NCBI GenBank assembly: GCA_963713615.1
Contig: CAVQMM010000001.1
Span: forward strand, 1,504,001 to 1,568,000
Source: an uncultured Chlamydiae bacterium
GTDB taxonomy: Bacteria > Chlamydiota > Chlamydiia > Chlamydiales > JAJFMA01
Length of the DNA stretch: 64,000 nucleotides
Direction: 5' to 3'
This document shows positions 7,316 through 48,316 of the stretch, in pieces. Made by a program: the position numbers and the translations under genes. The first letter of the stretch is position 1; each line of letters opens with the position of its first letter. The notes below the pieces were generated by a model. The model was given only the letters and a program-made list of their open reading frames with translations. It was not told where the DNA came from and searched no databases.

Positions 7316-7475
7316 GGCCTTGTTCACCTTTACGGTCAGAATTTCGGTCGGACGAAAAAGGTCGAATGTCGTGGTTTGTGACGAGGGCATAGCGCCAGCT
7401 ATGTCCGAGGAGCAAAACGCGACAGACGATCCTTTTGCAGTCGACCGAAAACTGACCGTAAAGGTGAACAAGGCC
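7316..7475 (+). mobile_element. 160-bp MITE, subfamily A (no matching TSD)
   Basis: GGCCTTGTTCACCTTTACGGTCAG...CTGACCGTAAAGGTGAACAAGGCC. Flanks tcaaaagg and cttatctg differ. Confidence 0.95.
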
Positions 7476-7685
7476 CTTATCTGAAAGACAAAGCTGTTGA
7501 CGAATCTGTTAATCGTATAACTTTGCCTGATGCATTAAAGTAAAAATATATTTCTACAGCAAACGTTTTTTTATTTTTCATCTAATTAAAAATTTAAACA
7601 ATAATTATACTTATTTAAATTGCATTATTACTGTTGCCAGGTGTAAATTCGCAGCGCCGATTAACGTTCAAAACAGGTAATAACA

Positions 7686-8234
7686 ATGAAGAATACATTC
7701 TCATATCTGATAGCTTCTTTTGTTGTAAATTTTTTATTTATAGGTACTGGATATTGTCAACCTATGACAAATGATGCTGGTTGGCCTTGTGTGGAAACGT
7801 CTAATTCGGATTTTGATCAGGTCTGCGATGCATATCGCTACGTGTCTTTGGGTGAAGGTCCAATTATCTTGATTCCTAATCTTGGTATCGGCTACAGAGC
7901 ACGCCATGGTCAATTTGGTTCGGACGCAGCGGTTAGTTTTTCGACTATTGGGTTTGCTCATCAACTGAGCGTTCATCTAGTTGGTCATTATTATCTTAAT
8001 CCTTTGCAAAAGACTTCTGCATATCTGGGCTTAGGATTGATGGGAAGTGGAATTTCCACTAATCGAAAGATCGTCGGTGGTACCCTATCACCAGACTTTG
8101 TTTTTGGTAAGGAACTTGGCGGCGGGCATTTCATCGAAACGCATATTGCCATTCCAAGCCTGTGGATGGACTCAAAACACATTTATTCGACGTTCCTTCC
8201 ACTCATGTATTTTAAATATGGAACTTCATTTTAA
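7686..8234 (+). CDS. Hypothetical exported protein, possible small beta-barrel
   Basis: Signal peptide, amphipathic beta-strand pattern, C-terminal Phe. Confidence 0.55.
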   Translation: MKNTFSYLIASFVVNFLFIGTGYCQPMTNDAGWPCVETSNSDFDQVCDAYRYVSLGEGPIILIPNLGIGYRARHGQFGSDAAVSFSTIGFAHQLSVHLVGHYYLNPLQKTSAYLGLGLMGSGISTNRKIVGGTLSPDFVFGKELGGGHFIETHIAIPSLWMDSKHIYSTFLPLMYFKYGTSF

Positions 8235-8237
8235 ATC

Positions 8238-8320
8238 CGGTTGGGCACCGATCTCGCAGGCATTTAGAGCCTTCACAATTGTGCTTCGACGCGTAGCGCT
8301 TTGGTGCCCCAATCGATTGG
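8238..8320. repeat. Degenerate REP-like/family-C module
   Basis: CACAATTGTGCTTCGACGCGTAGCGCTTTGGTGCCCCAATCGA resembles CACAATCGTC..CGGCGCGAAGCGCTTTGGAGCCCCAACCGA at ~47261. Confidence 0.55.
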
Positions 8321-8329
8321 TAACAAGGC

Positions 8330-9241
8330 TCAATTCGGTTGTCTTAGATGAGTTGGTAGGTTAGTCAGCAAATATGTCTCCAATTGGTCAGGAACGCCTG
8401 CAATAATCTCGCCGATTTTGCCGTCGGTACCCAGGATAAACATCGTAGGATATCCGGCTACTTTGAAGAGCGTGCGCAGCTTGCCCTCTTTGTCCTCAAC
8501 CCATTCGGTTGCTGATGCCAGCTGCACAAATTCGGGCGGCAACTCAGGGCTGACATTGATAAAGCGGTACCGGCTATTCTTCATCTGCGCGGCAACGGCA
8601 TTGACAATTGGCAGCTGCTCTTTGCAATAGGGACAGCCAGATGCGACGAAGTTCATGATCATCCCCTGCGACTGAGAGGGATCAAGATCCCCCAGAAGGA
8701 CCTTAGCAGCAACAATCGGTGCTGCATCACCGGTTTGCAAGCTGGTGGCAGCAACAGGAGATCGATTTTTGGCGTTGTAGATCATGAGAGTGAGATTGAG
8801 GCAACTAAACAAAGCTACGAGAGAGATGGGCACTAAGAGTAGCACACACAGGCGCTCTCTGATCGGCGTGCTAAAGGATTCGTTGGCCGGTGGAGGAACT
8901 AGTAACCAGATCATCCAGATGAAAATATTGGCAGCATGAACGATCAGGCAGGCGACACACCAATTGGGCAAATTGAGATAGGTTAATGCTATGGCTAGCA
9001 GCACTGCCCAGAGCATCCCGCCTCGAGCCATTTGGGGTCCAGGAAAACTCGGAAATAGCAACGCAGCAGCCACTAGGATGGCAAAGTAGGCCGAACCCGA
9101 TAGAGGTAGGTAAGGGCTGGTTGAGCCACAAGTCTTGCATCCAAAAATCCCGAATGGATTCGGCATTTCGGGCAATTTCAGGAATAACAGGACCAAGGCA
9201 AGGATCCCAAGAAGGGGGACCCAGTTACGAAATTGTTTCAT
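8330..9241 (-). CDS. Membrane redox protein: VKOR-like TM domain fused to a thioredoxin/TlpA domain
   Basis: CKTC in a loop, CVAC in a helix, C-terminal CPYC...GYPT thioredoxin fold. ATG at 9241 overlaps the upstream stop (ATGA). Confidence 0.7.
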   Translation of the reverse strand: MKQFRNWVPLLGILALVLLFLKLPEMPNPFGIFGCKTCGSTSPYLPLSGSAYFAILVAAALLFPSFPGPQMARGGMLWAVLLAIALTYLNLPNWCVACLIVHAANIFIWMIWLLVPPPANESFSTPIRERLCVLLLVPISLVALFSCLNLTLMIYNAKNRSPVAATSLQTGDAAPIVAAKVLLGDLDPSQSQGMIMNFVASGCPYCKEQLPIVNAVAAQMKNSRYRFINVSPELPPEFVQLASATEWVEDKEGKLRTLFKVAGYPTMFILGTDGKIGEIIAGVPDQLETYLLTNLPTHLRQPN

Positions 9242-9804
9242 GGAGAAACTGCTTGACACCACTTTGCAGGGGAACTGTCGAGGCCTAATGCCTTGATCAG
9301 AAAGGCCCCGTTCTGCTCGGAACCAGATACGGTAGCTCCGGACCAATATCCGGTCTTGCATGTGGAGGTATCACAGTTACCACCCAGCGTCATCCATTCT
9401 CCAGTACGCATAACGTCACAGGTACAAATGGCTTTCTTAGGATTTGATGGGTCCACTGTGCAGCGTTTATTCAAACACCAGCTCCATGGTGTGCCTTCAG
9501 GACACTTCATCCGTTGCAAGCCTTGATCAAACTGCAACAGGGAAAAGGTGGAATAGACTGTCTGAATCCCATTGGCATCCGTGCTGGGCTTGATTGTGTC
9601 ACAGTCTACTGTAGCCATACTTTGGCCTTCTTCAACATCGCAGAAGCAGATAGCTTTGGTAGGATCACCAGGCTGTGGGACGCATTTAGCCGAAGTACAA
9701 AGGGCATACTGCTGCTTGCACAAGCGCATACCTTGACTTGTTTGGCTACCCGAGGCCGCGGCGATCACAGCCACAATGGGAACAATATAAGTGAGTAAAT
9801 TCAT
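9238..9804 (-). CDS. Secreted cysteine-rich protein (14 Cys, two internal repeats)
   Basis: Signal peptide; ALCTSAKCVPQPGDPTKAICFCDV and SWCLNKRCTVDPSNPKKAICTCDV. Confidence 0.75.
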   Translation of the reverse strand: MNLLTYIVPIVAVIAAASGSQTSQGMRLCKQQYALCTSAKCVPQPGDPTKAICFCDVEEGQSMATVDCDTIKPSTDANGIQTVYSTFSLLQFDQGLQRMKCPEGTPWSWCLNKRCTVDPSNPKKAICTCDVMRTGEWMTLGGNCDTSTCKTGYWSGATVSGSEQNGAFLIKALGLDSSPAKWCQAVSP

Positions 9805-9910
9805 CTTTCATCCCTGATTGCAAAATGTCTGCCGGATCCGCCTCGGACAACCAGCACCAATTCAATAAATAATTGTACTTTATAAGATGCCCCTGTGTGG
9901 ATGTCAAGCA

Positions 9911-46859: not shown

Positions 46860-47170
46860 GTCCTTCCCAGCAGGTTACTGCATGCTTCTCCATGTCGATG
46901 TTCATAGAGATCACACCCTCTAGCAAACTGGAGGGAAGTGCCCAAGTGAATGATGATCCATGCAACCAAAATTCCTGCAAAGATCGGGTTCACAAACCAA
47001 AAGAAAATTGCTCCTAAGATGCATGTCGCAATCGCTGGAAGGATAGGCCAAAATAACTGCTGAATAATCAAATCCATATCCGTCATCTTATTTGCCAAAC
47101 TTCCAGCAAACCGTTCATTGAAGTAGTGCGGGAGGTGGTGCTGGATGTGATCAAACAGGGCCATGCGAAG
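46860..47170 (-). pseudogene. Internal fragment of an ABC exporter transmembrane domain
   Basis: LFDHIQHH..YFNERFAGSLANKMTDM followed by TM helices; both ends missing. Confidence 0.65.
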
Positions 47171-47228
47171 GTCTGCTAAAGACCCATTTTTGAAGCCGCA
47201 TGAACTGCCAAACAAAACTGATGATTTC

Positions 47229-47406
47229 GGCTCTTGGGAAGAATTGGGGCGCTTTGGAATCACAATCGTCAATCGGCGCGAAGCGCTTTGGAGCCCCAAC
47301 CGACTGCGTCGCCAATATCCGAAAGTAACGCTAAAAAAGAATTAGGAATTTTCACCGCCGAGTGACGATTGTGATTCCAAAGCGCCCCCAATTCTTCCCA
47401 AGCACC
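47229..47406. mobile_element. Family-C (ISL3-like end) MITE, 178 bp
   Basis: Long TIRs GGCTCTTGGGAAGAATTGGGGCGCTTTGGAATCACAATCGTCA / TGACGATTGTGATTCCAAAGCGCCCCCAATTCTTCCCAAGCACC; flanks not identical. Confidence 0.85.
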
Positions 47407-47417
47407 TAAGATTTTGC

Positions 47418-47981
47418 CTATGAATGGCAATCAGGTCTTTTGTAGTGCACTTTCAGATAGTAGTCGATAAGTTTCTTTAAAAGCACACGAGGATTTGATT
47501 CGTACATGATCTTCGCGCCTGTTTTCTTTTTTATATATTTAACAATGTGCTTAATCTCTGACGCGATGCCATCAGTACCCAAAAGAATGCCTATAAGGTT
47601 GCCTTCATCATAGGCAATTGAAAATTCACCAAGCGTTCCCGAATGGCCACCCATGATGATCACAATATCCGAACTGCGAATATTTACAACTTCCCTTCCC
47701 ATCAACCCGCTTCCAGTAAAAATAAGCACATCATGGTAGGCTGTGGGGGATTGATATTTTTCGATATGTTCCCTTTCGCTCAGTGCCGGCGATATCCCTA
47801 CAACCAATCCACCGGTGATGCTCGCTCCTCTAGCTGCCTCGAGGGGAAATCCAGGACAGGCTCCAGTGACAGTTATGCAATCATTTTCGGCTATCGCACA
47901 CCCTAACTCAAAAGCTTTATTCTTATGAACTTTTGAAAGCTTACCGGATGCGGATCCCATGACCCCAACTTTTAATTTCAT
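47418..47981 (-). CDS. LOG/SLOG-family protein (TIGR00725-like)
   Basis: VGVMGS, TGACPG, GISP, GGHSGTLGE. Confidence 0.82.
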   Translation of the reverse strand: MKLKVGVMGSASGKLSKVHKNKAFELGCAIAENDCITVTGACPGFPLEAARGASITGGLVVGISPALSEREHIEKYQSPTAYHDVLIFTGSGLMGREVVNIRSSDIVIIMGGHSGTLGEFSIAYDEGNLIGILLGTDGIASEIKHIVKYIKKKTGAKIMYESNPRVLLKKLIDYYLKVHYKRPDCHS

Positions 47982-47997
47982 TTTGTCTCCTTTTTAG

Positions 47998-48053
47998 GGC
48001 CTTGTTCACTTTTGCAGTCGACCGAAATTCTGACCGCAAAGGTGAACAAGGCC
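47998..48053 (+). mobile_element. 56-bp internally deleted MITE-A
   Basis: GGCCTTGTTCAC|TTTTGCAGTCGACC...GAACAAGGCC; 8-bp TSD ctttttag. Confidence 0.93.
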
Positions 48054-48156
48054 CTTTTTAGTATTACTGTCTTCTCCAGTAAAATAGGCTGCTGCTCTTG
48101 GACCTAAAGCTCTCATCATTCGGAATAAAATACATTTTTCTTAATATGTCAATTAT

Positions 48157-48316
48157 GGCCTTGTTCACCTTTACGGTCAGAATTTCGGTCGGACGAAAAA
48201 GGTCGGATGTCGTGGTTTGTGACGAGGGCATAGCGCCAGCTATGTCCGAGGAGCAAAACGCGACAGACGATCCTTTTGCAGTCGACCGAAAACTGACCGC
48301 AAAGGTGAATAAGGCC
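48157..48316 (+). mobile_element. 160-bp MITE, subfamily A (no matching TSD)
   Basis: Flanks tcaattat and gaaaggag differ. Confidence 0.95.

Follow-up and report, generated by a model that had tools for sequence, protein, structure and literature searches.

Several short, non-coding mobile elements of bacteria are predicted to fold very stably, and the closest described one is bcr1 of Bacillus, which has a length of about 150-170 bp, terminal inverted repeats (TIRs), a target-site duplication (TSD), no open reading frame (ORF), and a very stable predicted fold that is likewise reported to be kept by compensatory changes (PMC3184786). [quoted passage not shown] Here, we describe 160-bp repeats in a 64,000-nucleotide stretch of an uncultured Chlamydiae bacterium (assembly GCA_963713615.1, contig CAVQMM010000001.1, forward-strand positions 1,504,001 to 1,568,000; the whole stretch is referred to as the window), which resemble bcr1 in these respects. 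However, the published description of bcr1 is that of a cruciform-like element in one genus, having a pair of stem-loops and repeats of 5 bp (PMC3184786), whereas the window elements form one rod and share their core with elements of several end types and phyla. Compensatory change in a MITE was already known for bcr1; in the present elements, the structure of the interior is also conserved across transposase families and phyla. In a census of MITEs, 97.4% were genus-specific when clustered at 95% identity (PMC11602168). The sequence-only reading of the window had not recognised the repeats as a described family, which holds so far: Rfam gave zero matches at the gathering score, with only generic miRNA hairpins below it, and a literature search made without ISfinder and with few subscription papers found no description of the shared core or of its spread over end types.

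A second system to compare is a family annotated in Geobacter metallireducens in 2009, whose 24 members were entered as predicted short RNAs (PMC2700814); the accessible part of that paper gives no link to a MITE, a transposase, or another phylum. On its other strand, the palindrome of this Gmet_R1005 type is a CGTAGC-AGC-GCTACG tip, which also occurs in Anaerolineae-titled and Thermoleophilia members of our set. Elements of Geobacter relatives with this tip fold as rods of 130-150 nt with G.A loops, and multicopy Geobacter rods with the tip and variable outer arms (L486-L501) match the palindrome of the annotated family. Unlike the window elements, however, most of them lack the GACGA/GAGGA loop, our covariance model detects them at best with E 0.06, and their central palindrome GRCGTAGCGCTGCTACGCC does not occur in the window elements, which have ATAGC-GCYA-GCTAT and thus a related tip only. 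Judged by these sequences, the Gmet_R1005 type is a sister family, separate from the window MITEs.

A third comparison concerns the single-strand origins (sso) of rolling-circle plasmids, long imperfect hairpins that work on one strand as single-stranded DNA (ssDNA) (PMC8860593, PMC10378824). At their tip they carry the CS-6 motif, TAGCG(A/T), which is similar to the TAGC(N) that ends the stem of the MITE core, but the exact CS-6 is present in only 10 of 61 sequence types, and TAGC lies in the stem of the MITE core. The strand-specific long imperfect hairpin of ssoA is matched by the predicted fold, and CS-6 in the terminal loop is not. We use sso as a working analogy only.

Fold, covariation, and strand coherence

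The window repeats fall into subfamilies A and B, which align without gaps at 115/160 identical positions in our recount, as counted before. The proposal that one long hairpin is kept by compensatory differences was borne out, as each subfamily folds as a single rod (RNA z -15.2 for A and -12.3 for B; DNA fold of A, z -11.0), far below the shuffled sequences. The A fold has 64 pairs. B shows no change in 40 of these, and in 16 both sides differ but pairing is kept; 3 more differ on one side and still pair, and 5 are broken. The subfamilies differ at 36 of 120 positions that are paired in both folds and at 3 of 28 positions that are unpaired in both.

The comparison was extended to 61 types from more families. 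In a tree-based test of our own implementation, applied to sequences preselected for folding, five pairs in free columns, all within the predicted helix, were significant at E<0.05 against the tree-based null, and the pair-count covariation score was 0.577, compared to 0.181 for shuffled and at most 0.099 for slid alignments. The covariation that the earlier reading had asked for is thus significant.

The evidence from the motifs themselves is more mixed. In the set obtained by pattern scan, the invariance of GACGAG, GAGGAG, and AGC/GCT was forced by the search pattern and has no evidential weight. Among seven loci chosen by ends and outer arms, four keep GACGA/GAGGA with at most one change and three are remodelled. 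Both GA pairs are retained and the central C-G is swapped to G-C (GAGGA/GACGA) in 8 of 34 classified model matches (the classifier recognised no loops other than those of 3 nt, and 37 of the 71 loci received no class), and in seven Thermoleophilia matches the loop is replaced by one of GCA/GA type. The loop that had been regarded as invariant is therefore conserved, yet remodelled or swapped in some loci. At the TAGC/GCTA tip, T is present in 58 of 61 types, which is only partly forced by the search. The supposed GCYA tetraloop did not stand, as 21 loop types of 3-6 nt occur among 35 sequence types; selection for a GNRA loop or a GNNA loop of DNA was ruled out as well, the terminal loop being free. 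A Shine-Dalgarno reading of GAGGAG was also ruled out, as there is no start codon at a conserved distance.

The mismatches that interrupt the rod depend on the strand. An excess of G.U on one strand is weak in A and B alone (4 versus 1 in A, 2 versus 3 in B) and strong across families. When the arms of 35 types were aligned with a strand-neutral score and the search motif was left out, the single (1x1) mismatches, read on the G.A-rich strand, were G.T in 30 and A.C in 4 cases, and purine-purine in 40 and pyrimidine-pyrimidine in 3 cases. Counted per type, 19 favour G.T, 1 favours A.C, and 15 tie, and the G.A-rich strand was the better folder in 35/35 types. Filtering for rods favoured neither strand by much, as 93 passed on both strands, 9 versus 2 on one strand, and 44 on neither. 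Together with the retention of the core under different ends described below, the significant covariation and the strand-coherent mismatches support the earlier suggestion that selection acts on the folded interior.

Window copies and the DUF6399 insertion sequences

The genome examined (G000) comprises 3.97 Mb and is 99% complete; positions in it refer to contig C1. All nine window elements were found at the starts given before. Subfamily A is located at 7316..7475, 35319..35480, 40637..40796, and 48157..48316 on the plus strand and at 22442..22601 on the minus strand; subfamily B is located at 20749..20908 and 35107..35266 on the plus strand and at 36123..36282 on the minus strand. The copies at 22442, 40637, and 48157 are identical to the genome consensus, and the B copy at 36123 has a single substitution. 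The B copy at 35107 is followed at a distance of 52 bp by the copy at 35319, which is 162 bp long and has an arm-to-arm conversion tract in its right arm. In the copy at 40637, the conserved core (40701..40733, plus strand) comprises the GA-C-GA/GA-G-GA internal loop and the apical stem; the internal loop closes 9 bp of apical stem (ATAGC/GCTAT), followed by the free terminal loop. The copy at 7316, whose G.A-rich and well-folding strand is the plus strand, shares sequence with an APH-like ORF (6802-7392) at that ORF's 3' end, and the outer 21 bp of its right arm are a copy of the left arm. The ninth element (47998..48053, not assigned to a strand) is a mini element of 56 bp that consists of ends without interior. 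An exact 8-bp TSD flanks seven of the nine elements, including the mini element, which has its own, and is absent at 7316 and 48157.

Genome-wide, subfamily A has 116 full copies and subfamily B has 13, in total 129, and 80 of the 116 A copies are identical. An 8-bp duplication is present at 109 of 137 end-paired elements, and the insertion target is A-rich and oriented. With their length of 160 bp, non-coding sequence, 16-bp terminal stem, constant TSD, high dispersed copy number, and an autonomous element with the same ends (IS-A, see below), these repeats are MITEs. Among 13 sequencing runs (shares 0.05-0.11), two DNA runs contain near-identical element copies, one with different flanks; an orthologous site that lacks the element was not found.

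The ends of the MITEs lead to insertion sequences (ISs) elsewhere in the genome. IS-A (G000:C1:1035800-1037682, L001) has 1883 bp, an 8-bp TSD, and an intact-looking ORF of 559 aa, and IS-B (C1:1074398-1076015, L002) has 1618 bp and an ORF of 444 aa that is shorter in the helical middle; a second IS-B copy is frameshifted. L003 and L004 belong to the four DUF6399 elements of this genome, of which one is frameshifted and another is interrupted by an IS of DDE_5 type and also cut short by an element of UPF0236 type. The two MITE A ends are identical to the IS-A right end at 21/22 and 20/22 positions, and one MITE B end is identical to the IS-B right end at 21/22 positions, while the other ties at 18. 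Because the A and B ends follow IS-A and IS-B, respectively, part of the outer difference between A and B is end adaptation.

DUF6399 is the sole Pfam match above cut-off of the IS-A and IS-B proteins. D166, D221, H242, and E473 are invariant in 40/40 DUF6399 homologues, with H242 lying in a candidate C/DxxH motif that reads DxxH in P0001 and P0002 but ExxH in the homologue consensus. The protein model (pLDDT 77) is closest to Hermes and ISCth4 in Foldseek (E 5e-4 to 1e-3), and VIA-align gave Z 11.4 with integrase cores (rmsd 3.4, 147 aligned) and Z 9.9 with ISCth4 over 251 residues. A predicted RNase H fold with a D, D, E triad is therefore present. The DDE fold with a helical insertion, the His after the second Asp, the GG ends, and the 8-bp TSD resemble those of IS256/ISCth4, ISL3, IS66, and hAT elements (PMC7780238), and look-alike clusters carry ISL3, Mutator, and IS66 Pfam families. 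DUF6399 differs by its length of about 560 aa, its longer insertion, and the mostly ExxH motif, and profiles of the IS256, ISL3, and IS66 families gave no DUF6399 match above cut-off (best DDE_Tnp_ISL3, E 0.045, in 1/40). In the literature search, no paper describing DUF6399 was found. DUF6399 marks an unclassified IS family, and the window MITEs are likely moved in trans by a DDE transposase of the DUF6399 type, whose gene lies at another place in the genome.

The link to IS1595 (ISPna2 group) that had been drawn from the GGCnnTG ends and the 8-bp TSD has to be given up, as the genome contains zero PF12762 profile matches and the matching ends flank DUF6399 ORFs. Ends and TSD are present, but they are not diagnostic of IS1595, since GGC ends together with TSDs of 8 bp are found in DUF6399 elements as well; the suggested search for an IS1595 or ISL3 transposase with these ends leads to DDE ORFs of neither family. 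No Y1/HUH family was found among 104 flanking ORFs, and a 160-bp rod with TSD does not fit REP/REPIN elements. The elements are therefore no IS1595 derivatives and belong neither to an Rfam family nor to REP or ssoA.

DUF6399 scored 1563 matches among 7992 candidates. In other genomes, DUF6399 elements have GGC ends too, with an 8-bp TSD in 5 of 23 loci, many of which are partial; those of about 1950 bp in G149 (L310, L315, L318) and G231 (L311, L316, L304) have near-perfect inverted-repeat ends over at least 60 bp, unlike IS-A. A related-locus search with P0001 as sole query gave zero confirmed loci. Within the class, DUF6399 was found in 14/400 genomes and the core pattern in 12/401, with little overlap between the lists, which may be due to fragmented assemblies or helper loss.

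Apart from the MITEs, the window contains a single 889-aa ORF that fuses a class I fructose-bisphosphate aldolase and a phosphoglucose isomerase (9911-12580, minus strand), an intact P-type ATPase gene (27119-29605) directly followed by a second one in pieces (29642-32320, plus strand; three Pfam-matching ORFs), and ORFs with a beta-lactamase-family domain (2520-4577, minus strand) and a penicillin-binding transpeptidase domain (54591-55493, minus strand). The genome is very repeat-rich, with many more short repeat families (40-340 copies) and several IS families.

The core under other ends and in other phyla

As the core is absent from both the IS-A and the IS-B region, the MITE interior is not a simple deletion product of these elements. 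The same genome has another element with this core, and the ends of that element match a remnant of the IS66 family; in a genome of the same genus, the core lies under a further end type. IS66-end MITEs with the same core are located at G000:C1:1795357-1795514, 191206-191362, and near 2417849, with one IS66-end MITE being fused to DUF6399 right-end sequence. The IS remnants lie at 1499002-1500227 and 750372-751304 of the same contig, and 54-bp minis of the IS66-type end, again ends without interior, at 3499022 and 3499929.

A pattern scan of 17 of the 64 parts of a genome collection yielded 96 loci, of which 48 are complete rods, representing 32 types at <88% identity. The core-bearing records are titled Chlamydiae or Parachlamydiaceae, Anaerolineae, Solirubrobacterales, Thermoleophilaceae, Pseudonocardia, Nitriliruptorales, and Geobacter, with one being titled as an archaeon; one more record, with the title Acidobacteria, carries the end type of the chlamydial elements and was not counted as an extra phylum. 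The covariance model detected 47, 16, 12, 17, and 7 copies in five core-bearing genomes, and it had matches in 16 of 61 Thermoleophilia-related genomes and in 4 of 101 Geobacter relatives. Ends and duplications of the core-bearing elements vary widely. A metagenome scan by ends only (48 of 64 parts) gave 121 loci, mostly chance or unrelated palindromes, seven of which are homologous by their outer arms. The core patterns were found zero times in viral contigs in both motif orders, and a BLAST comparison of the element with plasmid and phage sequences gave no match.

Individual lineages show variations of the rod. Thermoleophilia copies (L268, L273, L276, L279, L282, and L284 in G062, as well as L398/L403 and L406/L407) have the inner 110 nt in common, with outer arms that are individual yet complementary, and many Thermoleophilia copies start at the stop codon of an opposite-strand gene. 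The archaeal-titled G576 contains 17 rod copies with two nested GACGA/GAGGA loops (L093, L447, L452, L457, L462, L467), both of which are swapped together in L462 and L467. Head-to-tail MITE dimers with short spacers occur in L386 (G273) and in L326/L337 (G252); the 8-bp spacer of the L386 dimer differs from the downstream flank at 2/8 positions. The dimers could be circle-junction products or the result of repeated insertion at one site.

Replication, a proposed mechanism, and rival explanations

With respect to genes, the folding strand has no preferred sense in the window's genome, as 27 copies are sense and 29 antisense between co-directional genes, and 15 versus 25 inside ORFs by crude ORF calls. 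With respect to replication, the folding strand is the lagging-like sequence (leading-strand template) in 92 of 125 copies, on both replichores (p 1e-7), and target availability is only 1.13-1.2:1, far less than this bias. The same bias was found in two other genomes, where three families gave 8/9, 11/15 (not significant alone), and 15/16, in total 34/40; these counts refer to regions around 40 of the 52 listed matches, with two unclassified copies split 1 and 1, and strand calls by skew are 85-88% accurate there. Other large repeat families of the window's genome are unbiased (e.g., 173/342, 59/136, and 63/121). The strand asymmetry is thus tied to replication, not transcription, in three genomes. 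Its direction fits a loss or mobilisation of the other orientation.

After insertion, copies gain the two kinds of mismatch in similar numbers. The gains were G.T in 28 and A.C in 20 cases, compared to 30 and 4 between families (Fisher p 0.003), and the rates of change in 39 copies were 3.8% for the motif, 3.9% for paired positions, 4.7% for the ends, and 7.2% for unpaired positions. Once inserted, copies decay in a roughly neutral way, and it seems to be mainly the lineages with continuing transposition that are under constraint.

We propose that what is selected is a fold of single-stranded DNA, which would work while the element itself is transposing; we judge this reading to stand at an even balance between right and wrong. 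A MITE with the ends of a DUF6399 IS would be moved in trans by the DUF6399 transposase, and the G.A-rich strand would become transiently single, either at the replication fork or as the displaced strand of a copy-out step. In copy-out transposition, the attack by a strand's donor end is directed at the opposite end of that very strand (PMC7780238); for DUF6399 elements, such a pathway is a hypothetical premise. The single strand would fold into the rod and thereby bring both of its ends side by side, which may ease end pairing on a DNA that, with 160 bp, is too short for easy looping. The TAGC/GCTA tip may also serve as a priming or protein-loading site; single-strand origins provide a priming site to plasmids (PMC8860593, PMC10378824), and a displaced strand or small circle would gain from one that is built in. 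The G.A loops would stabilise the folding strand and yet prevent a perfect palindrome, and the compensatory changes would come from arm-to-arm copying, with selection among transposing lineages setting which mismatches persist. Because minis with ends only also move, the fold would be an enhancer and not a requirement.

Several points weigh against this proposal. Folding in vivo and transposition by DUF6399 are themselves predicted properties, and three of seven ends-only minis (55-67 bp) carry their own TSD. The well-folding strand lies mostly on the leading-strand template and is thus the less exposed one, which the proposal does not predict. Several IS families show an orientation bias linked to clamp binding (PMC3971601), and a contact of transposase and replisome alone, without any fold, can produce such a bias (PMC3971601). 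A gradual loss of one orientation was ruled out, as copies of both orientations are equally old (65/92 versus 22/33 identical to the consensus). The bias is missing in the Geobacter sister family of G416 (10 versus 8 in 18 copies, with the terminus assumed to be opposite dnaA), and it amounts to 16/27 in 3-kb loci of other genomes and to 4/6 copies in G062, where the GC skew is too weak for strand calls. Two pairs of Thermoleophilia copies (L398/L403 and L406/L407) are at orthologous loci, which, with the mostly antisense orientation there, points to host-level effects in this group. In L229 (301-457, with 8-bp TSD) and in L222/L289, the GGCC ends are the same but surround another hairpin, which consists of CACAGAG-type repeats. 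The sequence types are related, so that the counts overstate independence, and the loci of the decay test were chosen with part of the core. Finally, for 59 mismatch contexts, the better fit is obtained with mismatch energies of DNA (log-likelihood -138.1, versus -141.9 with those of RNA), but this gain of 3.8 log units is small.

A more far-reaching version is doubtful at present. The core would be a portable ssDNA module whose conservation extends from chlamydiae as far as archaea, and any two IS ends would form an efficient miniature transposon when combined with it; the rod of the excised or exposed strand would pair the ends and prime the second strand, as a single-strand origin for MITEs that is swapped between transposase families.

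The interior might instead be selected as RNA, which we consider unlikely: a transcribed rod would be processed, stabilise or end transcripts, bind a protein, or be an independent small RNA. G.U and tandem G.A pairs are typical features of RNA, and the predicted RNA fold is very stable. In Thermoleophilia, copies have remained at orthologous loci and their inner part is very conserved, bcr1 is transcribed and retains its fold by compensatory changes (PMC3184786), and the Geobacter relative is annotated as a predicted short RNA (PMC2700814). However, a gene-sense bias is absent in the window's genome, and in Thermoleophilia the folding strand is antisense to both neighbours in 11 of 15 copies and sense in 3. 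As this orientation is opposite to what an mRNA-stabilising hairpin predicts, such a hairpin is disfavoured. The free terminal loop shows no GNRA or UNCG preference, there is no Rfam match, no promoter or terminator consensus was found around one copy, and 104 flanking ORFs share no neighbour family beyond SecA (three times) and several families twice, so that neither the fixed gene orientation nor the common gene family of a cis-acting structured RNA was found. One RNA sequencing run had no contig over the element, which, as only contigs were searched, says nothing on expression. With the replication bias and the near-neutral decay following insertion, a role in RNA processing or stability, as once suggested, is disfavoured.

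It is rather improbable, too, that the core is cargo. The hairpin would then be recognised by a separate system, either as a REP-like target of a nuclease (HUH or another type) or by a DNA-binding protein of the host, it would have been captured between IS ends repeatedly, and its conservation would be due to that system and not to DDE transposition. This would account for one core under several end types and for the same ends around another hairpin, as well as for short core versions with no detectable TIR or TSD (L058, L114, and L116), and the sequence conservation of the TAGC/GCTA tip suggests a protein contact. However, the 104 flanking ORFs include no recurrent nuclease or transposase (one PD-(D/E)XK and one RuvC), the GTAG or CGTC tag at a short-stem base that is typical of REP (PMC3733652) is absent, and covariation and G.A loops span the whole rod up to the ends.

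Still less likely, finally, is an unselected fold, in which arm-to-arm copying by template switching or recombination and symmetric transposase sites would yield the covariation. Copying does occur, as the A copies show 48 distinct substitutions, of which 10 lead to the allele of the opposite arm (2.9 expected, p 5e-4), several of them in multi-site tracts, and part of the outer-arm covariation tracks this copying and the ends of the two IS copies, which the A/B differences follow; however, copying is strand-symmetric and removes mismatches, the multi-site tracts are all confined to the outer 40 bp (including those of the copies at 7316 and 35319), the G.A loop is retained across phyla with its central pair swapped, and strand-biased C-to-T mutation would, as we infer, push toward A.C on the G.A-rich strand, opposite to the data. 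Arm-to-arm conversion, which had been named as a possible sole cause, is thus real but leaves the strand-coherent mismatches unexplained; it accounts for the origin of compensation, but not for the fact that the leftover mismatches all stabilise one strand.

The interiors of MITEs are usually treated as filler or, if folded, as RNA elements that act on host transcripts. As the element described here passes covariation tests, it calls for caution in screens for structured RNAs. If the fold acts in the transposition cycle, these elements would permit a direct test of why many bacterial MITEs are near-perfect hairpins.

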